A program made the position numbers and the translations under genes. Of a stretch of 64,000 nucleotides of DNA, positions 1,088-37,990 are shown one piece after another (the stretch's first letter is position 1; each line of letters starts with the position of its first letter). The stretch is from NCBI GenBank assembly GCA_965214705.1, contig OZ243972.1, positions 2,112,001 through 2,176,000 of the forward strand. The letters are read 5' to 3'. The notes under the pieces are model-generated. The model was not told the origin of the DNA. It saw only the letters and a program-made list of their open reading frames with translations, and searched no databases. Source of the DNA: Alphaproteobacteria bacterium (lineage in GTDB: Bacteria > Pseudomonadota > Alphaproteobacteria > UBA828).

Positions 1088-1093
1088 GCGCCG

Positions 1094-4914: not shown

Positions 4915-4920
4915 GCGCCG

Positions 4921-8439: not shown

Positions 8440-8445
8440 CGGCGC

Positions 8446-11368: not shown

Positions 11369-12433
11369 TCAGTTCTCCTGTGCGGATGGATACTCCAAAG
11401 GCTGCGCGTTGCTCCAGCCCCTGTGAGGCGCGCCATTCGAACGCATGTGCAACTTCCCTTTGGGCTGAAACACGCGCCGGCCACGGTGGATCAGGGCCCG
11501 TACCACCGCATTCTTGGGGTGCTCAGGGTCGCTGGTGTTAGCGGACACGATTGCGTCGAATGTCGAAGACGCGAGCCGACCCGGGAGGCGCGGGCCGAGC
11601 CAGGTGTCCAACACTGCAGGGGAGAGGTTCCGCCGAGAACCATGATGAGGAACCTGAAACCAATTGAGTGGTGATGTCACAATCCCCATTTGCGAAGCTG
11701 CCTGATAGGCTTCCGTCAACGACCGCACACCTGCGTCGCCGGTAAGGAGCACCTTCGTTCCGCAAACGTCCGCGAACTGGACCACGCTCGTTTCGTTGTC
11801 CGGCGATGTACCATCCGTGTCACCCTTCAGGTTCTCCTCGCCCCAATCGGCGGGTGAGACGGTCTCCACAATCAAAGCCTGCAACGCATCCAACACCGAG
11901 GCCGTTGCTGGCGTCTTCTCGGACTGCGCGACCAGAGTGAGATAGGTAAGCGGCGAAGGAGAAAGAACGGTGAACGCGCCGATTCTGGCGCCCTGGAAGA
12001 CGTCCATGATCTGGGTCCCTTGGGCGATCGCCAGCCTCTCTAGCGTCGCAACCTTCTCGAAGTCCCTCTTGAGTCGTGCAGTAAGGCGTTCGCGGTCCTG
12101 GTAGCGCTCAAAGAGGCCCATCAAGGCGTCGACATGTCTCCAGGGTCGGTTCATCCACAGGTTCACGACCCTCATATTACGCAGTACAGTTTCGAGCCCC
12201 GAGGCGTGATCGAGGTCGGAATGGGTGAGAACGAGATGGTTAATGTAGTACTGAGGGTGATAGTGCTCCCGGATGTGATCGACGAGCTTCTGCCCGTCGG
12301 CCGCATAACCGCCGTCGACGACGTGAACGTAGTCGATTGCATTGCATCGATGTCGGATCGCTATGGCGTCGCCGCTACTTCGGTCCCCGGCCTCAATGAA
12401 GTCGATTTCGATGAAGTCCGTCACTTCAAGCAC
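11369..12433 (-). CDS. Metallo-beta-lactamase-fold hydrolase (ComEC/Rec2-like)
   Basis: THSDLDH, LLTGDAG and QVPHHGSRRN motifs. Confidence 0.88.
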   Translation of the reverse strand: MLEVTDFIEIDFIEAGDRSSGDAIAIRHRCNAIDYVHVVDGGYAADGQKLVDHIREHYHPQYYINHLVLTHSDLDHASGLETVLRNMRVVNLWMNRPWRHVDALMGLFERYQDRERLTARLKRDFEKVATLERLAIAQGTQIMDVFQGARIGAFTVLSPSPLTYLTLVAQSEKTPATASVLDALQALIVETVSPADWGEENLKGDTDGTSPDNETSVVQFADVCGTKVLLTGDAGVRSLTEAYQAASQMGIVTSPLNWFQVPHHGSRRNLSPAVLDTWLGPRLPGRLASSTFDAIVSANTSDPEHPKNAVVRALIHRGRRVFQPKGKLHMRSNGAPHRGWSNAQPLEYPSAQEN

Positions 12434-13103
12434 TCAAGTTGTGGTTGTCGACCGAGCGCGAAGCCAAGGACGACCCCTTGCAGGACATGACCGTCTTGAC
12501 CAGCTGCTCGCCTTGTACGCGAGCGACCCAGCGGGCGATCGCGCACTGGCACACCAAAACAGCGCCGTACGCGAGGGCACGCCCGGTTTCCGCCGCGAGC
12601 CAGAGAGATAACGGACCTGCGACGACGAGTGTTGCGGTCGAGATGACCATCCAATCACGAGCGAAGAGGTACGGTCCGTACGATGATCGAACCCGTGGAT
12701 CGTTCGAGAACTCGCCGAGCCACCCGCCCCAGAGCGCATTCTGTTCGCCCGGATCGGTCGGGAACGGGGCGAAGTGCGCTTGAAGCGCTTTCCGGTCGAT
12801 CGTCGAATCCTTGTGCATAAAGTGGCTGAAAGCACGAGAACCGGGGCGAAGCGCCGGCCAGAACACCAAGGCTTCTTTGAACCATCTGGGGAACGCCCCA
12901 TTGAAGACGCTGACAACGGTCAGAAGGGAAATGTAAGGCCAATGACCCCAAGGGTCCGTTTCAATCACAGAGAAGAGCGCCGCAATTGACTCAAGATCCC
13001 GGTTAATGAGAACGCCCGACACGACGCCCGAGAAGACCGCGACATTTAGGATCCACACGAGGACCAACTTGGGGTAGTTCCAGGTTTTCAGAGTGACCTT
13101 CAT
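12426..13103 (-). CDS. Hypothetical membrane protein (about 4 TM segments)
   Basis: Two N-terminal and two C-terminal hydrophobic stretches; overlaps the MBL start. Confidence 0.75.
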   Translation of the reverse strand: MKVTLKTWNYPKLVLVWILNVAVFSGVVSGVLINRDLESIAALFSVIETDPWGHWPYISLLTVVSVFNGAFPRWFKEALVFWPALRPGSRAFSHFMHKDSTIDRKALQAHFAPFPTDPGEQNALWGGWLGEFSNDPRVRSSYGPYLFARDWMVISTATLVVAGPLSLWLAAETGRALAYGAVLVCQCAIARWVARVQGEQLVKTVMSCKGSSLASRSVDNHNLSA

Positions 13104-16693: not shown

Positions 16694-18529
16694 CCGCACC
16701 GATTCAGTGCCAGGTTTGCGCGATCGTTGGAATCAGTCGCTCAGCAGATACTGCGTCACCAATGCTCGAGTTATGGCTTCGCCGCGTCCCGAAAGCCTTC
16801 GAATATCCTCTTCCGACATGGCAGAGAAGTCTGTTGGGTAGCGAATCACTTCGTCTCGATCCACCCAGTTGGCCGGCTTCAATGGCACACGCCGGTCAAT
16901 CTGGCCGAGAGCGGCGTAGACGAAGCGGTCGATGCGTCCGGTTTTCGCGTGGTCGTGGAGGCGCTGCTTGGTGGCGTCCTGGACCTTGCGCATAACCGCA
17001 GAGACGACCTGGGTCATTCGCTTTGGCCAGCTGAGGGGCACCGCCTCGCCAGTGAACTGTCCGGCTCCGGCATCACTCGCGATGATGATGTCGGGGTTGT
17101 AGCTGATCGCGCTGATCCTGGGATCCCGGCCAGGCTCCATCACGCTCACGCCGAGGTTTTCGAAGACACCACCGTCGGTGACGATGACGCGGCGAACATC
17201 GGTTTGCCCGTTTCGCTCGAAAGGCCTGCTCCAGTCAAACGGTGGAAGGAATGGCGGATAGGCAGCCGAGGCGGTCACCGCGTCGGCGACCCGGAGCGCG
17301 TTCGCTGGCGCCCAGCCGTGTCTCCAGGTGCCGAAGCGCTCGTTGCTCATTCGGAACGCGGTGCCCGTTCGCAGCTCGCACGCGTTGAAGACGATCGATT
17401 TTGCTTGGCGCGTCGGCGCATCGCAGTTCTGAGTTCCGAGCGTCTCGGCGATCGCGTCGGCAACGACGTGTGTCCACGAGTAGCGGCGTCGGAGGGGCCA
17501 GGAACTCCACGAGACGGTGTTGCTTGCATTGCGGAGTCCGGGAAAGAGTGCCGCGACCCGATTCGCCATCAGTGTCGTCAGCTCGGCTGCGAACGTCGGC
17601 ACGTTCACCGCGGCAAGGTTCCACAAGAGCCGGGTAGAGCGTGCGGGGTGCATAAGTTTCCTCAGCGCGGGCCTCACCAGACCTCGACGAAGGAACCGGA
17701 CGGTTTTGCAATCGATTTCGGCGAACGGGGCGTCGGTGTAGCCGAGCAACCCGGTCATGACCGATCCGCCGGATACGCCCGAGATGACGTCGATCTCATC
17801 GAGGAGCTGAAGATCTTCGAGGGCGCGCAAAGTGCCGAGATGAAAGGCGACGGCCCTCGATCCGCCGCCCGACAGCGACAGACCGATTTTCTTGGGAAGA
17901 GACGTGACCGGAGGCGGGGCTGTCACGCCGCCGCGCGCCTCTATGGCCATCGCGATTCCGTTTCGATGCGCGGCCAGTTCGTGCTTCTCGAACGCGTAAG
18001 CACCGAGTTGGGGCTCCGGCGCCACGGCATGCCCGACGATGACCATCAGCTGCCTGGCGCCGCTATCGGGTGCACTCGCAAATATGGTGGCGATTCCCCT
18101 GAAGTCCGTGACGCTGGGCTCGGCCGGACTGACCGGATGTGAGTGCCAGGTTCCCACGTAGCGCACGATGCCGTGGGTCCGATCTTCGTAGTCCTGACAA
18201 AGATCTGTCGTGCCGTGCGTTCCGCAGAGAAAGTGTTCTGCTGAGAAACTGCTGTCGCGCGGAGGACCGCTGACGTTCGACACCCATGCGATCCCCAGGG
18301 TCTCGTCGAACTCTCCGAACAGCAACCCGCCGGTTTCTTGTTCCGGGGACCGTTCGCGGGCGCCAGCCCGGATCCAGCCGGTCATGTCGCGCCAGGCATT
18401 GGCCGACATCCGAAAGTCGAGGCCGTCGGCGACCCATCGGATATCCGGCGAAAACCGAAAGGTTAAGGGTTGGGCAGGCTCTCTCTCGAGAGCCTGCCCA
18501 ACCCTTTTGAACGAAGCCGCGGGCCACGA

Positions 18530-20689
18530 CCCAAGTTGGCACTTTTTCCGACCAGCCGAGCCTGTTCGAGCCAGTTTTGCGGCGCTGAACCACTAGATGT
18601 TGGGGTTGGAGGACACCTGAGACCCACATTTGCCATTCGTGGTCCTGGAAGCCAATTGTGGGGCCAGGACTTTGGAGTTGAGTCGATATCCCTCTTGCCA
18701 GATGCCGCGAACGCCGTGTATGCGAAACAGGCATCGCAGAAACGGCGCCGCCATGTACATCAAGGCAACCAGGACACACACCGACAAGGCCGGCCAGCCG
18801 GTCCGAAGCCATCGCCTCGTGCTCGCCCAGCGCGTCGGCGACAAGGTGCGCCACAGGACGCTGCTCAATCTCGGCACCGACTATCCGGTGCCGCGCGAGA
18901 AGTGGAAGGCCGTCACCGAACTCGCCGAGGCGCTGCTTCACGGCAAGCCGCCGCTGTTCGAGGGCGAGGCGGATGTGCGGGCCGCAGCCGAGGACATCGT
19001 CGCCAAGCTCAGGGCCAGGGGGTTCCGCGTCGAGGCGATGCAGGAAGAGGCGCGCAAGCCCGACATCGCCACCGTCGACCTCGATACCCTGGAGCACGAG
19101 AACCCGCGCACGGTCGGCTGCGAGCGCCTGTGCCTCAAGGCCCTCGACGCCCTCGGCTTCGCCGAAATCCTCCACGGCCTCGACATCAAGGGCCGCGACG
19201 GGCGCATCGCCAGCGCGCTGATCGTCGCCAGGATGGTCCATCCCGCCAGCGAGCGTGATACCAGCCGCTGGCTCCGCCACGACAGCGCGGCCGCCGAGCT
19301 CCTGGGCCTGGAGGGCGACCGCAAGGCGCTGCGGCGCAAGACGCTCTACCGCATCGGCGACCTGCTCTGGCGCCACCGCGCCGCCATCCAGCGGGAGCTG
19401 TTCAACCGTGAGCGCGCACTGCTCGACCTGCCCGAGACGATCGCCTTCTACGATCTCACCAACGTCCACTACCACGGCCACACGGGCGGCGAGCTTCCCA
19501 GGTTCGGGCGCTCCAAGCAGAAGCGCGACGACTGTCCCCTCATCACGCTGGCGCTGGCGCTCGACGGCGCGGGCTTCCCGCGCAGTTGCGAGATCCTGCC
19601 GGGCAACGTGAGCGAGCCGGGCACGCTGCACGAGGCGCTGGCGCGGCTCGAGGCGGTGTGCGGCGGCACGGCGCCGAAGCCCACGGTGGTCATGGACGCG
19701 GGCATCGCCACCGAGAAAAACATCGCGTGGCTGGGCGAGCAGGGCTACGACTGGATCGCGGTCAGCCGCGGTGCCAGGCCTGCGCCGCCCGAGGGCGGAC
19801 CCGAGGCCCTGCTGATCACCAGCGCGCGCCACGAGGTGCGGGCCTGGCGGCTTGCCAGCGAGGACGGCGAGGCGCGGCTCTACGTCGTCAGCGAGGGCAA
19901 GAAGAAGGCCGAGAACGCGATCATCGGCCTGAGGCGGAACCGCTTCGAGGCGGCGCTGGAAAGGCTCCACGGCGGCCTCCCGGTCAAGGGCCGCCTCAAG
20001 CGCTACGACAAGGTGCTGGAGAGCATAGGCCGCCTCAAGCAGCGCTTCTCCGCCGTCGCCAGGCACTACGAGATCACGGTCGAGAGGGCGAAAACCGGCC
20101 CCAATGCCACCGCCGTGCGCTTCAAGCGCAGGCCGCGATACGACGAGGCCGATGAGGGCGCCGGTGCCTATGTGCTGCGCACCAGCCACGTCGACTGGGA
20201 CATCGAGACGGTCCTGCGGACGTACTGGCGGATCACGGATATCGAGGCGACATTCCGGAGCCTGAAATCCGAGCTCGGCCTTCGCCCGATCTGGCACCAG
20301 CTCGACCGGCGCATCGCGGCCCACCTGCTGATCGCCGTGCTGGCCTACCACGCCGTGCATCTGATCCGTACCCGGCTGGCCGCGCGCGGCATCCACAAGT
20401 GCTGGGCGTCGATCCGCGAGAGCATGCGGACCTGGGTGCGGATCACCACGCGCCTGCGCCAGACCGACGGCACCTTGATCGTCAACCGCCAGGACACGCG
20501 CCCGGCCGCCGAGGTTGCCGCAATCTCCTCGGCGGCGGGCGTGGACCCCGCCATCCACCGCACGAGGACCCGTCTGATGAGCTGACAGAATCTCACAAAA
20601 TGTGGGGCCATGTTGGAATCGACCGAGAAAAATATCGCGTTGAATCAAACCAATAGGGAACACAGGCAGCGGAAAAGTGCCAACTTGGG
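18530..20689 (+). mobile_element. IS1634-family insertion sequence, copy 1 (2160 bp)
   Basis: IR CCCAAGTTGGCACTTTT; TSD ACGA. Confidence 0.9.
18753..20585 (+). CDS. IS1634-family DDE transposase
   Basis: FYDLTN, FGRSKQKRDD, VVMDAGI, IEATFRSLKSELGLRPIWH. Confidence 0.88.
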   Translation: MYIKATRTHTDKAGQPVRSHRLVLAQRVGDKVRHRTLLNLGTDYPVPREKWKAVTELAEALLHGKPPLFEGEADVRAAAEDIVAKLRARGFRVEAMQEEARKPDIATVDLDTLEHENPRTVGCERLCLKALDALGFAEILHGLDIKGRDGRIASALIVARMVHPASERDTSRWLRHDSAAAELLGLEGDRKALRRKTLYRIGDLLWRHRAAIQRELFNRERALLDLPETIAFYDLTNVHYHGHTGGELPRFGRSKQKRDDCPLITLALALDGAGFPRSCEILPGNVSEPGTLHEALARLEAVCGGTAPKPTVVMDAGIATEKNIAWLGEQGYDWIAVSRGARPAPPEGGPEALLITSARHEVRAWRLASEDGEARLYVVSEGKKKAENAIIGLRRNRFEAALERLHGGLPVKGRLKRYDKVLESIGRLKQRFSAVARHYEITVERAKTGPNATAVRFKRRPRYDEADEGAGAYVLRTSHVDWDIETVLRTYWRITDIEATFRSLKSELGLRPIWHQLDRRIAAHLLIAVLAYHAVHLIRTRLAARGIHKCWASIRESMRTWVRITTRLRQTDGTLIVNRQDTRPAAEVAAISSAAGVDPAIHRTRTRLMS

Positions 20690-20932
20690 ACGAGAGGCGA
20701 AGTTGAGCTATGTGGAAAGTGCGCTGATGTCAGCGTCAGGCGGCATCCACCGGCAGCAGAGTTGCGCATAAAATCGACGCTCGCGCCGGTCTTTCGGCAG
20801 GCATGCGGGCGCACGCTGCGAGGACTGAGCGGGGTGTGAGCCGAGGGCTGTCAGCCCGGCTCAAGCGGAGACAGGTTCGGTCGTGCGTCGGCGCTTTGGC
20901 GCCGTTGCGCGGGGCCGAAGCGAGCGGGCGTC

Positions 20933-22174
20933 TCACGGTTTCCCCCTGTGGGTCGGCGGCAGCGCCGGCGGGCCGCGCGTCGAGCGGGGCTCATGGCGGC
21001 GGCGGATTTCGCGGACGAGGCGCATGACGCCGCCGCAGTGGGGGCAGGCCACGGGCGCGGTGCCGATCTCGGGCTCTTCGTCGGGCTCGGCCTGAGCGCC
21101 GTCCACGCTTCCCTCGGGGGCGGCGCAGCCGAGGGCGCCGAGAGCCTGGCGTGCTCTCTCCAGCGTGCTGGCGCGGCAGCCGTTGGCGAGGATGCCGAAG
21201 TAGCGAATGCGGTGCATGCCGTCCGGCAGGACGTGCCTCAGGAAGCGGCGGATGAACTCGTCGGCGCTCACGGTGGCGATGCCGTAGCGCGGCTTTCTCT
21301 GCCCCGGCGCCTTGGGCTTTCGGTGGCGGAAGGAGACCGTCTCGCCGTCGAAGGAGACGATGCGGCTGTCGGAGATGGCGATCCTGTGCGTGTAGTGCGA
21401 GAGGTACCGGAAGACCTGCTCAGGCCCGCGGAAGGGCCGCTTGGCGTAGACCACCCAGTCCCTGGCCCGGGCGGCGGCAAGCGTGGCGTGGAACTCGCCG
21501 GGATTGGCGAGGTGGGCGAGGGTGCCGTGGAACTCCAGGTCCCCCCGGCCGTGGGCGCGGGCGAGCTCCTCGAGGAAGAGGCGGCGGAACAGGCTGCCGA
21601 GGACCTTGACGGGGGCGAGGAAGGTGGTGCTCCCCGTCTTCCACTCGCCACTGTCTACGTCGAAGCCCGCGTTGGGCACGACCACGTGCAGGTGCGGGTG
21701 GAAGCGGAGCTTCTGATCCCAGGTATGGAGGACCGCGGTGCCGCCGATGCGCATGCCGCCGTGGCGGGGATCGGCGGCGATGGTGCGCAGGGTCTCGGCG
21801 ACGGCCCGGAAGAGGATGTCGAACACCACCCTGCGGTTGCAGAAGGCAATGGCGGCAACCTCCTTGGGCAGGGTGAAGACCACATGGAAGTAGGGCACCG
21901 GCAGGATGTCCCCGGCGCGCTCCTCGCTCCAGAGGTTGGCGGCGAGACCCTGGCAGGTGGGGCAGTGGCGGTTGCGGCAGGAGTTGAAGAGCGGATGCTC
22001 GCGCCCGCAGCCCTCGCAGGCGTACATGTGGCCGCCGAGCACGGCGGTGCGGCACGCCTCGATGGCGCCCATGACCTTGAGCCGGGCGGCGTCGATGCGC
22101 CCTTTGTGGCGCTCACGGAAAGCGGCGCCGGCGCGGCGGAAGATCTCCGCCACGCCCGCGCGTTCGGCCTCCAC
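20933..22174 (-). CDS. IS91-family HUH/Y2 transposase
   Basis: Identical protein to copy 2. Confidence 0.93.
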   Translation of the reverse strand: MEAERAGVAEIFRRAGAAFRERHKGRIDAARLKVMGAIEACRTAVLGGHMYACEGCGREHPLFNSCRNRHCPTCQGLAANLWSEERAGDILPVPYFHVVFTLPKEVAAIAFCNRRVVFDILFRAVAETLRTIAADPRHGGMRIGGTAVLHTWDQKLRFHPHLHVVVPNAGFDVDSGEWKTGSTTFLAPVKVLGSLFRRLFLEELARAHGRGDLEFHGTLAHLANPGEFHATLAAARARDWVVYAKRPFRGPEQVFRYLSHYTHRIAISDSRIVSFDGETVSFRHRKPKAPGQRKPRYGIATVSADEFIRRFLRHVLPDGMHRIRYFGILANGCRASTLERARQALGALGCAAPEGSVDGAQAEPDEEPEIGTAPVACPHCGGVMRLVREIRRRHEPRSTRGPPALPPTHRGKP

Positions 22175-22180
22175 GCGCCG

Positions 22181-23059
22181 TCAGTTGCGCAACGCTGCGA
22201 AGCCTGAGATCGGGTGGTCGAGGCCCTCGAACATCTTGCCGGTGACGCGGGCGTAGTGACGGGTCGTGTTCGCGCTTCGATGGCCGAGCATGTCCCGGAT
22301 CACCTCGATATCGCCGCCGCGCTCGAGGAGATGGGTCGCCGCCGAATGGCGCAGGCAATGGAAGGTGTAGCTGCGGTCGAGCTCGGCAATGTCGCGCGCC
22401 CTCCTGAAGGCGGCCTGCAAGGTCTCCGTTGCGATGGGCCTGTCGAGCGAGACGCCGTAGAAGAGCCAGCTCGTCGGACGCGGCCAGATGTTCCTGTAGT
22501 AGACGCGCAAGTAGTGGATGACGATGTCCGGCAACGGTGCCATTCTCTCGGTGCCGCCTTTGCCGGAGGGGATGTGCAGCAGCTTCTTCTCCGACAGGAT
22601 GTCGCCGACCTTGATGGCCAAGGTCTCGGAGATGCGGAGCCCGCCGCCATAGCCGGTGACAATGGCAGCACGGTGGCGGAGGTCGGGTGTCGCAAGGATG
22701 AGGTGCTCGACCTCCTGCTCCGACATGTAGCGCGGCAGCTTGCCGGGCTTCTTGCGGGAGCGCAGGCCGGCGACATGGTCAGGCCAGCCGAGTGTGTCGA
22801 TGTAGAGGAAGTTCAGCGCGGCGAAGGAGACGTTGGTCGTGCCCGGACTGAGCCCCTTGTCGATCCGCCCCAGGTACCACTGGCGCACCTGCTCGGCGTC
22901 GAGCTCGTCCGGCGAGGCGTCGTAGTACCTGGCCAGGTTCTTGATCTCGCAGATGTAGGCCTTGGACGTGCTCGCGGCCAGATTGGCGATGCGGAGCTGC
23001 TCCTCCATGCGCTGGCGAAGAGGGGTGACGGTGTTCGTGTCGCACGCGGTCCCGGTCAT
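22181..23059 (-). CDS. Tyrosine recombinase/integrase (N>S variant)
   Basis: Same as the other copies except PTSW versus PTNW. Confidence 0.92.
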   Translation of the reverse strand: MTGTACDTNTVTPLRQRMEEQLRIANLAASTSKAYICEIKNLARYYDASPDELDAEQVRQWYLGRIDKGLSPGTTNVSFAALNFLYIDTLGWPDHVAGLRSRKKPGKLPRYMSEQEVEHLILATPDLRHRAAIVTGYGGGLRISETLAIKVGDILSEKKLLHIPSGKGGTERMAPLPDIVIHYLRVYYRNIWPRPTSWLFYGVSLDRPIATETLQAAFRRARDIAELDRSYTFHCLRHSAATHLLERGGDIEVIRDMLGHRSANTTRHYARVTGKMFEGLDHPISGFAALRN

Positions 23060-25521
23060 TATCGATCTCCCTGGATCGCGACGGCGCGCCGCCGGACCGA
23101 TCCGGCGACGGTCCGTCGCAGGGGTCGATGCTAACCACTGGTGATCGGGAGGCTGCTGGGGATCCGCCACCCGACGGGCGGAGCGCCACTGACGCAACCG
23201 GGAAGCGAACGCACAGAACAAACGGCACCCGCGACGCCTCGGAAATGAATGAACTCTACGCCGCTAACTCCGCGTAGCGGCTTCGTTCAAATGATGCTGG
23301 GGGTGATCAGATGACTGGGTAATGAGAAAACCGATGGCGGCGTCATCCGGCTCGGCGAGCCGCTCGGCCACTGCGTTGAGTGCCCGGGCGGACAGTGCGG
23401 CCGTGTCGGCATGAGATGCGACGAAGGTCGGATCGGAGCAACCGGGCTCGGGCTGGCGGAGGTCTTCAACGGCGTCCGATGTCCAGAAAGCCCTGGCCCA
23501 CTCGTCCAGCCAGTCTCGGGTCACTGCGGTCACTCCGAGACGCCGATGGACGTCAAGAGGCCCAGCCTGGTATCTAGGAGGCGCGATGACTGCAACGGCG
23601 TGTTGCGCAGTGGCGCTCATCATCACCGAGGCGACCGGAACGCGACGCTGGTGGTCCTTGAGTACAGCCTCGAGCTTGCTCTTGACCCTCAGGGACGCGG
23701 TCGCGTCGATGACTACGTCGACATCGCTATCCCAGTCGGATCCGGCCAGCGTCCGACTGATGATGTTCTCCCACTTAGTCTCTACTGCAACCTTGGGGGC
23801 GATCGATTGCACCCTCCGCGCGAGTGCGGCGACCTTCGTCTCGTTGGTGTCTGTTGCCGAAAAGTTTTGTCGCACGAGCACGCCCGGGGTGACACGGGCC
23901 CAGTCGTAGAGCGCGAGATGGGCGACCCCGGCTCGTGCGAGATGCTCCGCGATGAGCCCGCCGATCGCTCCACAGCCCCAGAGCGCGACCCGCTTGCCTC
24001 GAAACCAGTCCATCGGCGTACCCTCGTCTCGGCGAGTGACGATTTCGGGCCGGTTCTCGATCGCGCGGCACCACCGCACGCGGGCATCGCGACGCCATTG
24101 AAAGAGGATTTCCCATATGGAGTCGATCACCTCCTGAATGGCCGCCGGGGTATCTTGGTCCTTGTAGCGGTTGCTGAATTGGCAGGCGATGGAGGCCGCG
24201 CGCAGTTTGGCGACGTCGGCCGTTTCGATTTCCCAGAAGGTTAGGTGCTGGCGTCGTTGTTCAACATCGCCGGCGATGCCGCGCGAGGGAGCGCCTATTC
24301 CGACATACATGGGCGAGTCGGCCGGGACACGCTCGGAGGCAAGCATCAGGTGCGCGAGCAGGCGATAGCCGAGATTGCCGCGGCTCTCGAGATAATGGAG
24401 GAAGTAATCGACGGTTCGGGGATATTCGAACGGAAGCTCGAAGTCGAGTAGCGCCGCGGGCGCAACGAGCAGGTCGTTCGGGATCTCGTGGATGGGCAGC
24501 CAAGCGTTGACCTGGAGTAGGTCGAGCTTGGACTGCGAGAGTACGGCAGCGCCGAACCATGGCCAAGTATCACGGCCTGGCGTATCGGCATTCACGCAGA
24601 TCGCGGTGGAGGCAACCGTATAGGCGACGGGCGGATGCAGTGGTCCTTCGGGGTCGTCGAGCTCGTTGCGGGCGCCGCGTCGAAACCACTCGTCGAGTTG
24701 GGCCAGGAATCCGAACATGCCCTGCGAAGGAATCCACTGCGTCTCGGTGGACAGGTACACGCACAGACGATGTCCCCACTGAACGTGGCCAAAGCCGTGA
24801 AATCGGGTATGGGCGGTATCGACGGCTGGCGGCGTGAAGGGGAAATCCGCCGGGACCGACAGCGTTACGCTCTCACGATCGTGCAGAGGAAGGCCACCCT
24901 CGACGCGCTCGTAACGAGTGCAATCGAGGGTGATATCGATGTTCAGGGAAGCGCCGGGGGCCGTTTCTTCGTCGATACCGACAATCCGGACGGGAGAACG
25001 GTCGGTTTCGGCGATCCGTTGGAGCTGTGCGAGCGCAATCAGTTGTCCTTCACTGACGGCCACGACCGAATCCGACTGCGACGGCGGGGGCGGCGGCGGC
25101 CGCGCCGGCCCCTTTCAGCGCGTCGCTCATGGGCTTGCTCGCTTCGCTCTCGCCGATATGCGCGAAGCCGTTTTGGCCGACCTCGAAGATGATCGGCTCG
25201 GGATTGTCCTCGTCCGGATGCTCGTGTGTGCACAGGAACGCGTTGGGGACGATGCGCTCGTACTGTCTCTTCGCCTTGGCGTGGGGCGGGTTGTCGCCAG
25301 GATCGTTTCGCGCCGGGACCGGGTCCGAGCTCGAGACAACGTAGCCGGGGTCGAGGGCAGCATTGCCGATGTCGCGGACCATGTCGGACTTCAGGGTCTC
25401 GTCGTCCTGGTCCTGGTCCTTCCAGTACATGGCCGACTTGGAGCAATGATGGGGTGCAAGCAGGGCATTCCAGGCCAGCGTTGCGTCCTCGCTGCGGTCG
25501 AAGATGCGGCGAATAACGGGA

Positions 25522-25688
25522 AAGGCTTATCCCTCTGGCTCCGGTTCCCCAACATGTTGTACCGGCCACCTCGGCGGCGGTATCCGACACGGTCGCAGTT
25601 CCTTCCGTGTCTCAATGGGTTGCCCGTAAAGTGCCCAGCGATCCGGCACCCCACATATGGAGAAGCCGGATGTAAGGGGATAAGCCTT
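25522..25688. mobile_element. 167-bp MITE with IS1595-type ends
   Basis: Bounded by AAGGCTTATCCC and GGGGATAAGCCTT; no ORF. Confidence 0.8.
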
Positions 25689-25689
25689 T

Positions 25690-27188
25690 GAGCCTCTTGC
25701 AAAATAGCTGAGTCGAGTTGCTCTTCTGCCTGAGTGAAGGCCTTTGCGGTGGGACCGGCCCACCCTCGTGAGTATCATGTGCTGCGCTAGCGCAAAACAC
25801 CGCATGATGACCACGGAGGAGTGGAGCCGTGTCCCTGCGCGAGATGCTATCGGATTACTGGTACGCCTTTCAACAAGAGTTATTCCCGAGGCTCGAGAGC
25901 GAGCTTGGCCCGATGGGCGAGCGCTACGAGCTGTTCGTCGCGGTTCTGGAACTGGTGCGGGTCGAGGCTCTTCTGCCCTACTTCCGCGGCCAGGTAGGGC
26001 GGCCGGAGGAGGACCGCGCGGCGCTGGCGCGCGCCTTCATCGCCAAGGCCGTGTTCGACGTTCCGACGACGCGCGGCCTGATCGAGCGTCTTGAGGTTGA
26101 CGGCAGGCTATGCCGGCTGTGCGGCTGGAGCGGTGCCGGCCGGCTTCCGAGCGAGGCGACGTTTTCGCGGGCCTTTTCCGAGTTTGCCGAGAGCCGTCTT
26201 GCGAACCGTCTGCATGAGACGTTGATTGCGCGGACGATGGATGGCCATCTTGTCGAGCACATCTCGCGGGATGCGACGGCGATCGAGGCGCGGGAGAAGC
26301 CGAAGCCGAAGGCAGCGAAGCCGAAGCGGCGCAAGCGGGGGCGGCCACGCAAGGGAGAGGCGCGGGCGAAGGAGCCGAGCCGGCTGGAACGGCAACTGAC
26401 GATGAGCCTTCCGCAGATGCTGGCAGACCTGCCGAGGGCCTGCGATGTCGGCAGCAAGCGCAACGCCAAGGGCCATACCACCTCCTGGATCGGGTACAAG
26501 CTGCACGTCGATACCGCCGATGGCGGGATCCCCATCAGCTGCATCATGACGTCTGCGTCGACGCATGACTCCCAGGTGGCGATTCCGTTGGGAACCCTGA
26601 CGGCCGGGCGGGTCGAGAACCTCTACGACCTTATGGACGCGGCCTATGATTCCATCGAGATCTGGGCGCACAGCATCTTGCTGGGCCACAAGCCGATCAT
26701 CGACGTGAACCCCCGCCGCTCGGTCGAAATGCAAGAGGCGTTGAAGCAGGAGAAGAAGGCGCGGCGCACGCTCGGCCTCGTCTTTCCCGAGGAGCGTCGT
26801 TACGTCGTGCGCTCGGGGTCCGAGCGGATCAATGGGCGGCTCAAGGATGAGTTCGGCGGCCGCCATGTCCGCGTGCGCGGGTACGACAAGGTTCTCGCCC
26901 ACCTCATGTTCGGCATGACCGTGCTGACGGCCAGCCAGCTGATGCGCCTTATCGTTCCGCCGATCTAGTCCGGCTCCTCTCCTTCGCCATCACCGCAGCC
27001 GCACTTCCTGAGAGGCGGAGCGGCCAAACGCGCCTGGAGTTCGGCGAAAATACCGAATCGGAGGCAGCGCCAACGCTGATCCGACCATGGTCGCGATCAA
27101 AATCGCGCCAATTGCCGTGCGCCGACGTCGCTGCTAGCTTGGGTGTTCTTGCGCCGCTCCGAGTCGATCAGAGTTTTGCAAGCGGCTC
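25690..27188 (+). mobile_element. Insertion sequence, IS5/IS1182-like DDE (family uncertain)
   Basis: IR GAGCCTCTTGCAAAA / TTTTGCAAGCGGCTC; TSD CTTT. Confidence 0.85.
25829..26968 (+). CDS. DDE transposase
   Basis: SRDATAI, GYKLHV, LMDAAYD, ERINGRLK motifs. Confidence 0.88.
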   Translation: MSLREMLSDYWYAFQQELFPRLESELGPMGERYELFVAVLELVRVEALLPYFRGQVGRPEEDRAALARAFIAKAVFDVPTTRGLIERLEVDGRLCRLCGWSGAGRLPSEATFSRAFSEFAESRLANRLHETLIARTMDGHLVEHISRDATAIEAREKPKPKAAKPKRRKRGRPRKGEARAKEPSRLERQLTMSLPQMLADLPRACDVGSKRNAKGHTTSWIGYKLHVDTADGGIPISCIMTSASTHDSQVAIPLGTLTAGRVENLYDLMDAAYDSIEIWAHSILLGHKPIIDVNPRRSVEMQEALKQEKKARRTLGLVFPEERRYVVRSGSERINGRLKDEFGGRHVRVRGYDKVLAHLMFGMTVLTASQLMRLIVPPI

Positions 27189-27476
27189 CTTTGGGAGAAA
27201 TATCAGAAAAATGGTGATGTGAACTACACCGGAAAATTGGACGAATTCTTGAAAGATCATTCAACAGATTTCGTCGAATTGAGGTAAAGGCTTCTCCCCT
27301 TGGTTCCGGTGACGCAAGATGTTGATCGTCGCCGGCATCGGCGCGCGTCGCACGCGTGATATCTTGGACTGGCGAGAGCGCTGCCCGGCCCCGTCACGCG
27401 GTGCCGGAGTTCGGTATAATGACTCCGAGACAGCCGGAATGGCTGGCTGCGGCACGGTGTTGACCGGCCGGTGGGA

Positions 27477-28415
27477 TCAGGCGCGTTGTTCGACGAAGTC
27501 GCGGTAGCTGGAGGGTTGAAGGCCGGCGCCGATGCCGAGCAGGGTGTCGAAGGCGGCGTCGGTGTGGCGGCGTCGGTTCCTACGGAAGACGAACTCGTCG
27601 AGGTAACGGCGCAAATGGGCGCGGCGCAGGCCGTGAAAGGTGCCGAGCGCCCAGCGTTTCAGGTTCGAGAAGACGCGATGGGTCCACTTCAGCACGAGAT
27701 GGGCGGGCGTGTCGCCGACGATCCTGGCCTCATGGTCGTGCCCGGACAGGCCGGGATAGCCGCTCCAACCGTCGGTGATCACCAGCGCGCCCGGCGCCGA
27801 GGTGGCGGCAACGAAGGCGTGCAGGCTGAGCGCGGAGTAATCCACGATCGGCGCGAGGCGGATGCGGCGCGGCTCACCCTCGGGAGACAGCTCGACCGCT
27901 CCGGCGATGAGCATCTTGCCTTGCGCGCTGCGGCCTTGCCCGCCGGTGGGCGGGTCTTGCGCGGTGCGCTGCGGCAACGAGGCTTCGTCGATCTCAACCA
28001 GATCCTCAAGCAGGCTGCGGTCGGGATCGACCATGGCGCGACGCAGCTTGTGCAGCAGCAGCCACGCACTCTTGTAGCTGCCGAGCCCGAGCTGGGCCTG
28101 GAGTTGCAGGGCGGAGATGCCGTTCGAATGGCTGGTCACCATATGGATGGCGGTGAACCAGGTCTTCAGCGGCAGGTGGCTGCGATGCATGATCGTGCCC
28201 GCGGTCACCGACGTCTCCTTGCCGCAGCCCGCACATTCCCAACTCGCCCTGCGACGCTTCAACTCCCAACCCTTGTCATGGCCGCAAGCGGGGCAAACGA
28301 AGCCGTCGGGCCAACGCTTTGCCGCGAGGTGTCTGGCGCAGGCCTCTTCATCGGGGAAGCGCGCCTCGAAGGCAGCGCGGGACATCGGGCGGTCGTGCTT
28401 CCAGCGGCTCGGCAT
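27477..28415 (-). CDS. IS1595-family (ISXO2-like) transposase
   Basis: CPAC...CAGC zinc ribbon, VEIDE, TDGW, YLDEFVFR; element spans 27287-28497. Confidence 0.9.
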   Translation of the reverse strand: MPSRWKHDRPMSRAAFEARFPDEEACARHLAAKRWPDGFVCPACGHDKGWELKRRRASWECAGCGKETSVTAGTIMHRSHLPLKTWFTAIHMVTSHSNGISALQLQAQLGLGSYKSAWLLLHKLRRAMVDPDRSLLEDLVEIDEASLPQRTAQDPPTGGQGRSAQGKMLIAGAVELSPEGEPRRIRLAPIVDYSALSLHAFVAATSAPGALVITDGWSGYPGLSGHDHEARIVGDTPAHLVLKWTHRVFSNLKRWALGTFHGLRRAHLRRYLDEFVFRRNRRRHTDAAFDTLLGIGAGLQPSSYRDFVEQRA

Positions 28416-29588
28416 GGCGAGAACATTACACGAACAACTCGTCCCTGCCAACCCAAACACAAGATGTCGTCAAACCGGGGTCAAGGGGATAAGCCTTTAA
28501 CGGGATAGCTGAGGTCGCCCATGAGCAGCGCCCGGCCGGTAGTCGCGCCGTTGTACAGGGAGATCTGGAACGCCAGACTGCAGTCGTTGCGGTCGCCGAA
28601 GCTGTCGTCTTTGAACGGGGCATGTACGAACGCCTCGAATGCATGGGAGACGTCCTCACCATCGAGGGTCGTGATGACCTGGCCCGGTACGGTCAGCAGC
28701 TCTTCCGGAAAGCCGTGGAATTCGGGTTCCTGCAATAATTCGTCGTAACCGATGATGCGAATGCGATCCCCTCGCCCTGGGTCGCCGCGTGCATCGATGG
28801 CGGCTTGGACACGGCGCATCGCCTCGTCGTGAAAGGCTTGCGCGTCGTCGCAGAGGTCGTCGTTCTCGCGGTATTCCCGGAACGTGCGTGGGGACATCCA
28901 GAGCTCGGAGATGATCACGCGCCCGTTCAGTTCCTCGAATCCCTGGCAATGATCGAGGTCTGGGTGAGTGAGCGCGAATACCGACAGGTAGGGCCGGTCG
29001 CCAAGTGTCGGCAAGATGTCGATGAGTTCGTCGATCACCGGCCAGGCCGGGTCATCGCCGTCCTCGGATTTAGCCATGTGGCGCAGGTCGACCTGAAGGT
29101 AGACGGTATCGGCCACCCGGACGGTGGTGCTGTCGCCAGTGCCGACCGGCCAGAAGATGAAGCCTTGGTCAGGGGGTTGGATGGCCATGTGTGGCAGTCC
29201 TTTGGTTTGTTGTCGAACGAGCCCATGTTGGGGCTGAAGATTCTCCAAAACCCTACATGTTGGGTTTTCCTAGCGGATTTCAAGTGTGACGTTGAAGAGG
29301 CGGGACGGGACCCGGGGCAGTGCTCGAACCATGTCGGCAGGGCGCCGACATCGCAAGGGCGCGGAAGGATATCGGGGCTGGAAACGGAGGAGATACGGGG
29401 GTCGAGGAGGCTGGATCGAGTCCTCGGGCTTGCACAGAAGCGGTTCGCGATGGCAGGCGGGCCGTCTTCGGAGGTGGCGCTAAGCTGTGGGAAGTGTGGC
29501 GAAGACGCTGTTGGAGATGGCCGTGCAGCCGTTGCGACCGCGAACTTTGCCGATTCGGGCACTCGGGCCCAAGCTTCGGATCGCTAGA

Positions 29589-30378: not shown

Positions 30379-31536
30379 TCATGGACAGAGGTACACCGCC
30401 CATTGCTCCATCAGCGCGCGGCGCCGCTCGAACAGGTCCGACCGCGCATAGGCCGCTTCGGTCTTGTTGCGCACCACATGCGCAAGGGCGGCCTCGATCA
30501 CCGCGTGCGGGGCGTCGGACTGCTCGCCGCACCAATCGCGAAACGCCGAGCGCATCCCGTGCGGCGTCGCCTTCGCCTCGCCCAGCCTGCGCATGGTGCG
30601 CAGCAGCGCCATCTGACTCAACTCCGCGCCGCCGGTGCCCGGAAACACCCATTGGGAGCCGTGGCGGGGAAGCCCGCGCACTTCGTCGATAATCGCCACC
30701 GCGCGCTCCGCGAGCGGCACCCGATGCTCCCGCACCATCTTCATCCGAGCCGCGGGCACCGTCCATGTCCGGGTGTCCATGTCCACCTCGTCCCAGGTCA
30801 TCAGCCGCACCTCGCTCGTGCGCGCCGCGGTCAGAGTGAGAAACTCCAGCGCGAGCCGTCGCGGCAGCGGAACCGCCGCTTCTTGCAGGCATACGAGAAA
30901 CGCGCCGACCTGCGCGTACGGCATCGCCTCATGATGTTTCTCTTCCCCCTTGTATCTGGGCAGAACGCTCGTCACGTTCGCCGTCGGGTCGTCCGAGCGA
31001 TGCCCCTCGGCGATTGCCCATTGGAATACCGAGCTCATGCGTTGCAGCACCCGCTTGGCGGTGGGCGGCTTCTCGTTCCACAGCGGCGTGAGCACCAGGA
31101 GCATTTCGCTGGTGGTGAGGGTGTCGACACCTCGGCTTCCGATGTGCGGGAAGACGTAGAGACGCATCGTCTGGCGCCACGAAATCTGCGAAGTCGGGCT
31201 CTTCCATGCCGGAGCCTTCACGGCGAGGACGGCCTCGAACGCCTCCGCGAAGGTTGGCGCGGCCGCGGCGGGCCGGGCGCGCGGGTCGCCGCCGGAACGG
31301 GCGATGCGACGGTTGTCCAGAGCGCGCTCGCGCGCATCGGCTAGCCCTACGAGTGGATAGGCCCCGAGACCGAGGTCGCGGCGCCGGCCGTGGATGACGA
31401 GGCGTTGGACCCAGGATTTCGAGACCCATCGCTTGCGCTCGGAGCGGACGACACGCAGGATCAGTCCATGTTCGTCGTGGTACTTGCCTGGAGCGTTGAC
31501 GGTGCGCACGAAGGCGGCGGTGAGCTGTTTGGCCAA
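30379..31536 (-). CDS. P4-type tyrosine integrase with arm-binding N-terminal domain
   Basis: PGKYHDEHGL...LGLGAYP...LADAR; TAARTSE, HGMRS, LAH, AAYARS. Confidence 0.92.
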   Translation of the reverse strand: MAKQLTAAFVRTVNAPGKYHDEHGLILRVVRSERKRWVSKSWVQRLVIHGRRRDLGLGAYPLVGLADARERALDNRRIARSGGDPRARPAAAAPTFAEAFEAVLAVKAPAWKSPTSQISWRQTMRLYVFPHIGSRGVDTLTTSEMLLVLTPLWNEKPPTAKRVLQRMSSVFQWAIAEGHRSDDPTANVTSVLPRYKGEEKHHEAMPYAQVGAFLVCLQEAAVPLPRRLALEFLTLTAARTSEVRLMTWDEVDMDTRTWTVPAARMKMVREHRVPLAERAVAIIDEVRGLPRHGSQWVFPGTGGAELSQMALLRTMRRLGEAKATPHGMRSAFRDWCGEQSDAPHAVIEAALAHVVRNKTEAAYARSDLFERRRALMEQWAVYLCP

Positions 31537-33186: not shown

Positions 33187-34164
33187 TCAAGCCGCGTCGT
33201 CGGGACGGACGAGGTCCTCCCACCGCAGCCGCTTGCCTGCCATGTTGGCGGCCAGGTCCCCCATCATGGCCAGGGTGTCGGCCTCGCGCCCGTTGTGGCG
33301 CTGGGCGAACTCGGTCACGTACCGGTCGCAGTGCTTCTCGCTGAAGTGGTGGAAGGTGCCTTGGTAGCCGCGCTTGAGGATCGCCCAGAACGACTCGATG
33401 CCGTTGGTGTGGGCCATGTGCCGCACGTACTCGCCGGCGGAGTGGTTGACCGCCTCGTGGTCCTCCCGGAGCCCTCGGTACGCGCGCCACTCGTCCGTGT
33501 ACAGGGTCGCGTCCGGGGTGGCCACGTCGTCGACGAAGCCCCTCAGCGTCAGGCGAGTGGCGTCGGGGATGGTGCGGGCGCGCACCTTACCGGTCTCCCG
33601 GTCCCTGGCGCCCACGACGGTCGTCATGGCCTCGGACCCGCCACCCCCGAACCGTTCCCGCATCTCCCGCCGCTTGGCCGCGTGCATGTTCTTGCGCTTG
33701 CCGCCTATGTGGGTCTCGTCCACCTCGAGGGTGCCGAACGCTTGAGTCTCACGCTCGCCCCATGCCTTCCGGATTCGATGGCACATGTGCCACGCGTGCC
33801 GTTGGGTGATGCCCAGGTCCCGATGGACCTTCATCGAGGCTATCCCCTTGAGACTCGTGGTGAAAAGGTAGATCGCAATTGCCCATTTCTGGTATCCGAG
33901 CTTGCTCGAGTGCATCACGGTCCCGGTCCTCAGCGAGAAGAGAGGGCGACCGGGACAGTCCCGACACCGGTGCGTCTGATTCCGATGCCCCGCCACCTCG
34001 GTGACGTTGAACGAGCCGCATCGAGGGCAGTACGGTCCGTCCGGCCAAAGCCGAGACTTGAACCACCGTTGTGCCGCCTCATCGTCCGGGAACATCGCGA
34101 TGATCTGTACGAGGGTGATGCCCTCGCGGTAGCCCCTACCGGGACCCTTCCGCTGTTTCGACAT
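33187..34164 (-). CDS. IS1595-family transposase
   Basis: CPRC...CRDC, EVDETH, YTDEW, NGIESFW. Confidence 0.92.
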   Translation of the reverse strand: MSKQRKGPGRGYREGITLVQIIAMFPDDEAAQRWFKSRLWPDGPYCPRCGSFNVTEVAGHRNQTHRCRDCPGRPLFSLRTGTVMHSSKLGYQKWAIAIYLFTTSLKGIASMKVHRDLGITQRHAWHMCHRIRKAWGERETQAFGTLEVDETHIGGKRKNMHAAKRREMRERFGGGGSEAMTTVVGARDRETGKVRARTIPDATRLTLRGFVDDVATPDATLYTDEWRAYRGLREDHEAVNHSAGEYVRHMAHTNGIESFWAILKRGYQGTFHHFSEKHCDRYVTEFAQRHNGREADTLAMMGDLAANMAGKRLRWEDLVRPDDAA

Positions 34165-35830: not shown

Positions 35831-37990
35831 CCCAAGTTGGCACTTTTTCCGACCAGCCGAGCCTGTTCGAGCCAGTTTTGCGGCGCTGAACCACTAGATG
35901 TTGGGGTTGGAGGACACCTGAGACCCACATTTGCCATTCGTGGTCCTGGAAGCCAATTGTGGGGCCAGGACTTTGGAGTTGAGTCGATATCCCTCTTGCC
36001 AGATGCCGCGAACGCCGTGTATGCGAAACAGGCATCGCAGAAACGGCGCCGCCATGTACATCAAGGCAACCAGGACACACACCGACAAGGCCGGCCAGCC
36101 GGTCCGAAGCCATCGCCTCGTGCTCGCCCAGCGCGTCGGCGACAAGGTGCGCCACAGGACGCTGCTCAATCTCGGCACCGACTATCCGGTGCCGCGCGAG
36201 AAGTGGAAGGCCGTCACCGAACTCGCCGAGGCGCTGCTTCACGGCAAGCCGCCGCTGTTCGAGGGCGAGGCGGATGTGCGGGCCGCAGCCGAGGACATCG
36301 TCGCCAAGCTCAGGGCCAGGGGGTTCCGCGTCGAGGCGATGCAGGAAGAGGCGCGCAAGCCCGACATCGCCACCGTCGACCTCGATACCCTGGAGCACGA
36401 GAACCCGCGCACGGTCGGCTGCGAGCGCCTGTGCCTCAAGGCCCTCGACGCCCTCGGCTTCGCCGAAATCCTCCACGGCCTCGACATCAAGGGCCGCGAC
36501 GGGCGCATCGCCAGCGCGCTGATCGTCGCCAGGATGGTCCATCCCGCCAGCGAGCGTGATACCAGCCGCTGGCTCCGCCACGACAGCGCGGCCGCCGAGC
36601 TCCTGGGCCTGGAGGGCGACCGCAAGGCGCTGCGGCGCAAGACGCTCTACCGCATCGGCGACCTGCTCTGGCGCCACCGCGCCGCCATCCAGCGGGAGCT
36701 GTTCAACCGTGAGCGCGCACTGCTCGACCTGCCCGAGACGATCGCCTTCTACGATCTCACCAACGTCCACTACCACGGCCACACGGGCGGCGAGCTTCCC
36801 AGGTTCGGGCGCTCCAAGCAGAAGCGCGACGACTGTCCCCTCATCACGCTGGCGCTGGCGCTCGACGGCGCGGGCTTCCCGCGCAGTTGCGAGATCCTGC
36901 CGGGCAACGTGAGCGAGCCGGGCACGCTGCACGAGGCGCTGGCGCGGCTCGAGGCGGTGTGCGGCGGCACGGCGCCGAAGCCCACGGTGGTCATGGACGC
37001 GGGCATCGCCACCGAGAAAAACATCGCGTGGCTGGGCGAGCAGGGCTACGACTGGATCGCGGTCAGCCGCGGTGCCAGGCCTGCGCCGCCCGAGGGCGGA
37101 CCCGAGGCCCTGCTGATCACCAGCGCGCGCCACGAGGTGCGGGCCTGGCGGCTTGCCAGCGAGGACGGCGAGGCGCGGCTCTACGTCGTCAGCGAGGGCA
37201 AGAAGAAGGCCGAGAACGCGATCATCGGCCTGAGGCGGAACCGCTTCGAGGCGGCGCTGGAAAGGCTCCACGGCGGCCTTGCGGTCAAGGGCCGCCTCAA
37301 GCGCTACGACAAGGTGCTGGAGAGCATAGGCCGCCTCAAGCAGCGCTTCTCCGCCGTCGCCAGGCACTACGAGATCACGGTCGAGAGGGCGAAAACCGGC
37401 CCCAATGCCACCGCCGTGCGCTTCAAGCGCAGGCCGCGATACGACGAGGCCGATGAGGGCGCCGGTGCCTATGTGCTGCGCACCAGCCACGTCGACTGGG
37501 ACATCGAGACGGTCCTGCGGACGTACTGGCGGATCACGGATATCGAGGCGACATTCCGGAGCCTGAAATCCGAGCTCGGCCTTCGCCCGATCTGGCACCA
37601 GCTCGACCGGCGCATCGCGGCCCACCTGCTGATCGCCGTGCTGGCCTACCACGCCGTGCATCTGATCCGTACCCGGCTGGCCGCGCGCGGCATCCACAAG
37701 TGCTGGGCGTCGATCCGCGAGAGCATGCGGACCTGGGTGCGGATCACCACGCGCCTGCGCCAGACCGACGGCACCTTGATCGTCAACCGCCAGGACACGC
37801 GCCCGGCCGCCGAGGTTGCCGCAATCTCCTCGGCGGCGGGCGTGGACCCCGCCATCCACCGCACGAGGACCCGTCTGATGAGCTGACAGAATCTCACAAA
37901 ATGTGGGGCCATGTTGGAATCGACCGAGAAAAATATCGCGTTGAATCAAACCAATAGGGAACACAGGCAGCGGAAAAGTGCCAACTTGGG
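35831..37990 (+). mobile_element. IS1634-family insertion sequence, copy 2
   Basis: Same IRs and length as copy 1; TSD TCAT. Confidence 0.9.
36054..37886 (+). CDS. IS1634-family transposase
   Basis: Identical to copy 1 except P>A. Confidence 0.88.
   Translation: MYIKATRTHTDKAGQPVRSHRLVLAQRVGDKVRHRTLLNLGTDYPVPREKWKAVTELAEALLHGKPPLFEGEADVRAAAEDIVAKLRARGFRVEAMQEEARKPDIATVDLDTLEHENPRTVGCERLCLKALDALGFAEILHGLDIKGRDGRIASALIVARMVHPASERDTSRWLRHDSAAAELLGLEGDRKALRRKTLYRIGDLLWRHRAAIQRELFNRERALLDLPETIAFYDLTNVHYHGHTGGELPRFGRSKQKRDDCPLITLALALDGAGFPRSCEILPGNVSEPGTLHEALARLEAVCGGTAPKPTVVMDAGIATEKNIAWLGEQGYDWIAVSRGARPAPPEGGPEALLITSARHEVRAWRLASEDGEARLYVVSEGKKKAENAIIGLRRNRFEAALERLHGGLAVKGRLKRYDKVLESIGRLKQRFSAVARHYEITVERAKTGPNATAVRFKRRPRYDEADEGAGAYVLRTSHVDWDIETVLRTYWRITDIEATFRSLKSELGLRPIWHQLDRRIAAHLLIAVLAYHAVHLIRTRLAARGIHKCWASIRESMRTWVRITTRLRQTDGTLIVNRQDTRPAAEVAAISSAAGVDPAIHRTRTRLMS

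Follow-up and report, generated by a model that had tools for sequence, protein, structure and literature searches.

Results

The stretch of DNA analysed in this work (the window) spans 64,000 nucleotides of an alphaproteobacterial genome of the lineage UBA828 (GenBank assembly GCA_965214705.1, contig OZ243972.1, positions 2,112,001 to 2,176,000 of the forward strand), and it harbours on its minus strand a two-gene cassette encoding a metallo-β-lactamase (MBL) fold protein and a multidomain protein made of E2, E1, JAB peptidase and patatin lipase modules. The cassette represents the 6A-MBL anti-phage system in a variant with fused patatin, inactivated here by insertion sequences (IS). When intact it consists of a 384-aa MBL gene and an overlapping gene whose product has four modules and a length of about 1,166 aa; in the window, once the inserts are set aside, the MBL gene (29188-28499 plus 25520-25053) is followed on the same strand by the E2-E1-JAB-patatin gene (25063-23288 plus 18460-16733). 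Both genes are interrupted by IS inserts, the sequence of neither being lost, and no further copy of the MBL was found in the 7.9-Mb assembly. Since both genes are interrupted and there is no second copy, neither maturation nor conjugation is possible in this genome, where the cassette is a recent pseudogene, left as a remnant in an IS-saturated island.

The upstream part of the MBL gene lies in a 255-aa open reading frame (ORF; 28481-29248, containing the motif HPDLDH) which, used as a query, matched 1,634 proteins with a typical length of 384 aa, the nearest of them being the protein designated P0001 (96% identity). A tblastn search with P0001 placed its residues 1-230 at 28499..29188 on the minus strand (96% identity) and its residues 227-384 at 25526-25053 (95% identity), thereby delimiting an N-terminal fragment with the motifs HPDLDH (residues 75-80), VHAPF (at 188) and GD (224-225), and a C-terminal fragment (25050..25520, minus strand, residues ~229-384) containing APHHCS and CTHEH. 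The ORF within this second fragment, 126 aa long when counted from its first ATG and 158 aa by homology, bears the MBL tail described in an earlier note on this DNA, but represents only the C-terminal piece (residues 227-384) of the 384-aa gene. What splits the gene is a composite IS insert of 2,978 bp (25521..28498), recognised by its inverted repeats and by the Pfam transposase domains that it encodes. Imperfect 40-nt inverted repeats (25521-25560 and 28459-28498) form its ends, a CCCGTT direct repeat flanks it, and its end motif occurs four times against 0.03 occurrences expected. The insert comprises a 169-bp element resembling a miniature inverted-repeat transposable element (25521-25689), an IS5-type element (transposase 25829-26968, plus strand) and an IS1595-type element (27285-28499; transposase 27477-28460, minus strand).

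The AlphaFold2 (AF2) model of P0001, computed from a 102-sequence alignment (predicted local distance difference test, pLDDT, 89.3; predicted template modelling score 0.88), adopts the αβ/βα sandwich of the MBL fold, and its top PDB matches are all MBL-fold proteins. The globular part is nearest to the ComEC nuclease domain (structure 9ic4, E 9.6e-11, template modelling (TM) score 0.73 on the target; profile search 4.6e-13), with the pneumococcal phosphorylcholine esterase as the second-nearest fold. The metal motif HxDxDH (H75, D77, D79 and H80) is near-invariant in the alignment, and so are H252, H253 and C254. The protein is a ComEC-like hydrolase by fold, probably a nuclease or a phosphodiesterase. 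After the last MBL strand, a segment rich in Ala, Gly and Ser with a median length of 31 residues runs to the C-terminus across the alignment, and residues 353-384 of the model fall below a pLDDT of 50.

Downstream of the MBL, the E2-E1 ORF (23264-25063, minus strand, 599 aa) matched Prok-E2_A (2.3e-20) and ThiF (1.8e-18) in Pfam and, over its full length, the PADLOC E1-E2 model (1.1e-80). The mapping of an intact fused protein assigns residues 1-592 (23288..25063, minus strand) to the fused gene; the E2-E1 gene mentioned in the earlier note is only the front of an E2-E1-JAB-patatin gene. The ORF retains the E2 cysteine (Cys101), GCGAIG (363-368), RQN (398-400), D453 and the crossover-loop cysteine (Cys542); both cysteines are invariant, their positions corresponding to C109 and to the crossover-loop C548 of Cap2. 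In the AF2 model of the 599-aa part (pLDDT 81.5), residues 530-547 form a low-confidence loop around the Cys542 region, as in the C548 crossover loop of Cap2. The top PDB match of this model is Cap2 by fold (7to3_A, 1.7e-21 over 659 columns), and Cap2 is also the top PDB match by sequence (1.9e-6); the E1 domain superposes on that of Cap2 bound to a CD-NTase C-terminus with TM scores of 0.80-0.83.

Aligned to the fused protein, the first window piece ends at 23288 and the second begins at 18460, and the two abut at one and the same residue, 592, on either side of a 4,827-bp insert (18461..23287). Pfam identifies in the insert a tyrosine recombinase (22181-23221), an IS91-type Y2 transposase (20933-22174) and, on the plus strand, an IS1634-like DDE transposase (18630-20585). 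Beyond it lies the JAB-patatin part (16733..18460, minus strand; ORF 16733-18409, mapping 18460-16736), with Prok-JAB (5e-9) and Patatin (4.6e-18) domains in Pfam and a JAB match in PADLOC (6e-20). The JAB catalytic motifs E25, HSHP (89-92) and S99..D102 are present, as are those of the patatin module of about 420 aa fused after it (GGGSR at 181, GVSGG at 211 and DGG at 412).

The disordered C-terminal tail of the MBL (residues ~353-384; 25053..25148, minus strand), delimited by its sequence, the P0001 model and motif statistics, is where the two genes meet. The minus-strand ORF ends in ...AAAAAPAVAVGFG-RGRQ with a TGA stop at 25052-25050; the reverse complement of 25130-25050 reads ...GAAAAAPAVAVGFGRGRQ-stop, which translates as ...G-A-A-A-A-A-P-A-V-A-V-G-F-G-R-G-R-Q-stop. 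The GFG codons occupy 25073-25065 and the RGRQ extension 25064-25053, while the E2-E1 gene starts with GTG (25063-25061) within the R-G codons after GFG, the two frames sharing 14 nt. This codon-level reading bears out what had been described before of the region, namely an Ala-rich tail, GFG plus four residues and a stop overlapping the E2-E1 start.

Of 14 related loci, 11 keep the order MBL, E2-E1, JAB-patatin, and the remaining three are a fragment or cut by a contig end; the downstream gene is a single frame of 1,162-1,166 aa in ten related loci, the intact second gene carrying Prok-E2_A, ThiF, Prok-JAB and Patatin. The fused form was matched by 244 database proteins; among the best 120 of them, 114 carry all four Pfam families and six, which are shorter, lack only the E2 hit. 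In the MBLs of intact relatives, some 30 disordered residues with much Ala, Gly and Ser form a linker that terminates in (V/I)GFG plus 3-4 residues. Protein identity of the cassette ranges from 75 to 96% between the window and nine loci (L001-L009) from metagenome-assembled genomes (MAGs) labelled Acidobacteriota (Vicinamibacterales, Terriglobia), Alphaproteobacteria, Gammaproteobacteria and Gemmatimonadota. Their flanks are unrelated, with DISARM-like helicase/methylase and PIN-FitA genes at L001 and ParA/RepA and transposase genes at L006. Such identity across phyla within unrelated flanks indicates a recent horizontal spread. The scanned flanks of the intact loci held no conserved extra gene, no CD-NTase and no sulfur-metabolism genes.

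Other relatives show signs of decay as well. In L011, a Longimicrobiales MAG, the MBL gene (7001-9770) is split by a DDE transposase gene on the opposite strand (7657-9255), which is a second independent case of IS inactivation; just upstream of it lie separate ThiF (4197-5216) and JAB (5173-6117) genes, perhaps another ubiquitin-like system. On a Solemya gill symbiont scaffold (L010) the homology to E2-E1 is split into two segments (8142-8630 and 8647-9918), and the ORF that begins at its start extends for 164 aa only, which points to a frameshift or stop in this copy.

The C-terminus of the MBL is constrained throughout the family. Among the best 120 homologues (the close family), 114 are full length (≥378 aa) and 112 of these terminate in GFG plus 3-4 residues (107 GFG+4; 5 GFG+3), the remaining two having divergent, apparently frameshifted ends. 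The distant family was defined by a search with P0001 that retrieved 627 representatives with an E-value cut-off of 1e-3; the best 150 were inspected, and 75 of these were full length (340-460 aa). An aromatic residue or His followed by Gly or Ala ([FYHW][GA]) occurs in the last ten residues of 67 of these 75 (YG 26, HG 18, FG 15, FA 3, YA 3, WG 2); 34 of the 75 terminate exactly at this dipeptide and others extend 1-8 residues past it. By comparison, the dipeptide was found in 10.4% of 2,568 internal ten-residue segments of the same proteins, and at the segment end in 1.4%. G380 is conserved in at least 90% of the 102-sequence alignment. Thus the alignment of homologue C-termini proposed in the earlier note, in search of a conserved (F/Y)G followed by variable extensions, gave the pattern that it anticipated.

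A sample of 401 genomes of the window's phylum yielded 13 positives, from which ten further loci were drawn. All ten MBLs end in Gly or in Gly plus 1-6 residues (PHG, GFG-R, PHG, THG-LR, GYG-D, KHG-DDD, AHG-CRNKDS, GHG, RAG and RAG), and at all ten loci an ORF with Prok-E2_A and/or ThiF begins between -59 and +3 nt from the MBL stop. The plasmid-borne homologues of E. coli pSE11-2 and Rhizobium pRLa11 end in RAG-VSNQ and GFG-AE, respectively; these two MBLs and those of seven out of eight genome loci lie upstream of an E2-E1-JAB gene of 742-790 aa. A Cap2-like E2-E1(-JAB) gene follows the MBL at every locus examined. As negative control we used the family of a second, unrelated defence-type MBL encoded in the window (11369-12433, minus strand; PADLOC PDC-M48B, 1.8e-112). 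Of its 117 full-length homologues, none terminates in aromatic-Gly/Ala and only one has the dipeptide within its last ten residues, the majority having D, E or N as final residue. Judged from these sequence comparisons, the tail is far from a chance feature.

The patatin module is a variable companion of this core. In the eight longer loci of the phylum sample the second gene has 743-790 aa in seven cases and 495 aa in one, and a fused patatin in none. At one of these eight, L033 (G233:C1:1371000-1379000), the E2-E1-JAB ORF (4497-6803) is overlapped at its end by a separate 399-aa patatin ORF (3338-4537, minus strand) with 41% identity to the patatin domain of the window (E 1e-87). As the same pair occurs both fused and split, the patatin can be regarded as a functional component of this sub-type. 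The three-gene cassette of L033 is followed by a gene for a type IV secretion coupling protein (980-3004) and is probably located on a conjugative element.

The region around the cassette (positions 1-38000 of the window) is saturated with mobile elements. A 346-aa tyrosine recombinase occurs four times (1094-2134, 4921-5961, 7399-8439 and 22181-23221) and a 413-aa IS91-type Y2 transposase three times (3673-4914, 8446-9687 and 20933-22174); there are also two IS1634-like transposases of 651 aa (18630-20585 and 35931-37886) and three IS1595-type transposases (9914-10831, 27477-28460 and 33187-34164), along with IS4-like and IS110 transposases. About 1.2 kb upstream of the MBL gene, a P4-type integrase (30379-31536, minus strand; Arm-DNA-bind_3, Phage_int_M and Phage_integrase domains) suggests the boundary of an island; ARAGORN found no tRNA genes in the window and the attachment site of the island can therefore not be named.

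The second MBL (11369-12433) lies about 4 kb beyond the cassette. It also matches the MBL models associated with LmuA, DRT and Avs1a, that is, the family of pro-nucleases paired with proteases. Its protease partner was not found, and neither the 225-aa ORF that overlaps it upstream (12426-13103, minus strand) nor the ORFs up to 16149 matched a Pfam or PADLOC family; the IS1595 transposase just downstream of it (9914-10831) may have removed the partner. Lactamase_B-type ORFs likewise lie within about 1 kb downstream of the cassette at L036 (3602-4666), L037 (4200-5180) and L001 (12007-12873), by chance or by association.

Discussion

The operon type to which the cassette belongs was listed by Iyer, Burroughs and Aravind in 2006 (Table 1, row 6a) as an MBL gene plus an E2-E1-JAB gene, next to a type 6b that corresponds to present-day Type II CBASS (cyclic oligonucleotide-based antiphage signalling system). 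The review that names it 6A-MBL mentions anti-phage activity in Pseudomonas aeruginosa, crediting van den Berg et al. 2024, and a 2025 preprint counts it among the "known jumbo phage defense systems".

The tail of the MBL looks like a handle by which a ubiquitin-type enzyme would attach the protein to a target. Because it is conserved, disordered, linked to E1/E2 and missing in an MBL family without E1/E2, it matches the signature of Cap2 substrates. According to Jenson 2023, cGAS has a conserved C-terminal Gly/Ala only where Cap2 and Cap3 accompany it; thioester formation and conjugation depend on this residue, and Cap3 cuts a linear fusion right after it. In the Cap2 structure described in the Ledvina preprint, the disordered cGAS C-terminus lies in the E1 site in the form of an AMP adduct. 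MBL conjugation via the tail glycine may thus be considered well supported by comparison. The earlier note had gone further in calling the MBL itself a ubiquitin-like modifier. The tagged conjugate of that proposal survives, given the conserved aromatic-Gly end, the disordered linker, the Cap2-like neighbour and the motif-free control family; the ubiquitin-like modifier does not, since the model displays an MBL fold with no β-grasp.

Trimming of the tail by JAB is a reasonable expectation, because about half of the family has residues past the Gly, the other half needing no trimming; precedent exists in BilC, which is described as pre-processing the ubiquitin-like protein BilA. By analogy with Type II CBASS, the most likely mechanism would begin with the removal by JAB of the residues past Gly380, in members that carry them, whereupon the E1 domain would adenylate the freed Gly carboxylate. 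The MBL would next become thioester-linked to the crossover-loop Cys542, then to the E2 Cys101, and would finally be ligated to an amine on a target, a ligation that JAB could reverse. During phage infection, conjugation might prime or localise the two effectors, MBL hydrolase and patatin lipase. For the latter, the resemblance to CapV makes a membrane-attacking effector the simplest candidate role; that the fused patatin could be the acceptor of the MBL, as the earlier note had ventured, is unsupported.

Taken as a whole, the locus is best explained as a broken patatin-fused 6A-MBL cassette whose intact relatives would conjugate the MBL via its tail glycine in the manner of Type II CBASS, an explanation that we consider likely, with room for doubt. 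Several observations weigh against it. The Pfam scan of both MBL fragments matched no family. Eight of the 75 distant representatives have no near-terminal aromatic-Gly/Ala, some of them ending in RLG, RAG or YSA and others seeming truncated or frameshifted. In the close family the two residues after GFG ("RG") are encoded where the next gene has its GTG start, and this overlap constrains them, so that their conservation is uninformative about a protease site. Finally, with canonical 6A-MBL devoid of patatin and no fusion among the eight longer phylum-sample loci, the patatin is dispensable for the core mechanism.

Among the alternatives, the one that survives best, although we regard it as unlikely, holds that the tail is a protease site only and that cleavage by JAB activates an MBL pro-enzyme as in HamM, with no conjugation involved. 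The MBL is ComEC-like, a protease domain is always present, and ComEC-like defence MBLs are described in PMC12799240 as pro-nucleases activated proteolytically, there by trypsin-like proteases. However, the 34 of 75 representatives that end exactly at the dipeptide would offer nothing to cleave, the cleaved segments of HamM are reported in the same article as insertions over the active site and not as C-termini, and the MBL family paired with proteases differs in having an acidic C-terminus. Cleavage alone would moreover leave the invariant E1/E2 cysteines and the adenylation motifs without a role.

It is less probable still that the E1 modifies the MBL C-terminus with no ligation, either by thiocarboxylation as in ThiS/MoaD or by MccB-like adenylation and rearrangement. 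Structures of ThiF, MoeB and MccB do appear among the fold matches of the E1 domain, and Iyer 2006 presents a C-terminal Gly as a hallmark of sulfur carriers too; yet the top match over all three domains is Cap2, including an E2 with its invariant Cys, the same article favours thioester formation over sulfur transfer for JAB-associated E1s, and the cassette flanks contain no sulfur-metabolism genes. Comparably improbable, in our judgement, is a variant of the conjugation scheme in which the MBL would be attached via Gly380, as in Atg8 lipidation, to an aminophospholipid of the membrane, and the patatin, fused or adjacent, would act on the same membrane. A lipid target is raised as a possibility for cGAS in Jenson 2023, and were lipidation true, 6A systems would be a bacterial counterpart of LC3 lipidation.

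The notion that the tail is conserved as a nucleotide by-product of the gene overlap (E2-E1 start codon, ribosome-binding signals) could draw on the 14-nt stop/start overlap of the close family and on the GTG within the two codons after GFG, but it is hardly tenable, since across 15 sequences the GFG codons differ in synonymous third positions with the residues fixed, the motif remains terminal at junctions between -59 and +3 nt, distant members retain the residue pair despite unrelated DNA, and the L012 MBL ends in ...EFG with neither extension nor gene overlap, the next ORF beginning 28 nt downstream. Therefore, the constraint on the tail acts on the protein and not on the DNA.

The core idea of conjugation in these systems is not new, the system being already named 6A-MBL and a 2024 preprint already assuming that MBL pathways conjugate their enzyme via a fused E2-E1. 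On the MBL tail, its processing or the patatin fusion, the literature within our search offered general statements only, the supplements and full texts of van den Berg 2024 and Ledvina 2023 lying outside it, so these could already describe the tail or patatin forms. What our analysis adds is modest: an aromatic-Gly rule that holds across the MBL family, allows an optional extension and is backed by a negative control; patatin variants in fused and in split form; and decay of the cassette through IS elements. Nonetheless, 6A-MBL is a named but mechanistically unexplored system, and the aromatic-Gly end makes MBL conjugation and JAB maturation cheaply testable. The patatin-bearing forms, with at least 244 fused proteins and one sister locus where the gene stands alone, point to a likely second effector and link 6A-MBL architecturally to CapV-containing CBASS operons.

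Of the known systems, canonical 6A-MBL is the closest. It shares with the window a specialised MBL directly upstream of, and overlapping, a gene with E2, E1 and JAB in that order, located in mobile or defence contexts, and the window MBL is homologous to those of canonical two-gene operons such as that of E. coli pSE11-2. It differs in that the window form has the patatin fused (~1,166 aa), whereas the canonical second gene encodes 742-790 aa; a three-gene form with separate patatin also exists, and in the window the genes are not uninterrupted but IS-broken.

Type II CBASS (CD-NTase, Cap2 and Cap3, often with CapV) has in common with the cassette a Cap2-like E2-E1 with matching cysteines, a JAB peptidase, a substrate enzyme whose disordered tail ends in Gly/Ala with a conservation tied to E1/E2, and a patatin lipase as killing module. 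As identity of the cassette it was rejected for want of a CD-NTase, no nucleotidyltransferase family having been found among the cassette ORFs and the scanned flanks. The window system has no cyclic-nucleotide sensor domain and places an MBL-fold hydrolase in the substrate position, its JAB and patatin are fused to E2-E1, many MBL tails extend past the Gly, and this Gly is mostly preceded by an aromatic residue or His, in contrast to the variable penultimate residue described for cGAS.

HamM, PDC-M48B and the LmuA- and DRT-associated MBLs resemble the cassette in having a defence-linked ComEC-like MBL upstream of a protease-bearing multidomain gene. However, P0001 matches PDC-M48B only weakly (5e-6 over ~45 residues, versus 1.8e-112 for the second MBL of the window), its partner is an E2-E1-JAB protein instead of a trypsin-like protease, and that family ends acidic, with no aromatic-Gly in 117 proteins.

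A last parallel lies in eukaryotic autophagy, where Atg8-family proteins end in an aromatic residue and Gly followed by a short extension that is removed by a protease. The Ledvina preprint compares Cap2-type enzymes with Atg7 plus Atg3/Atg10 and places 6a E1s among the closest bacterial relatives of Atg7. With the Atg8/LC3-Atg4-Atg7-Atg3 lipidation pathway the cassette also shares a substrate with a single C-terminal Gly. The differences are that the window system has a 384-aa enzyme with a floppy tail in place of a β-grasp ubiquitin-like protein, and a JAB metalloprotease in place of a cysteine protease.

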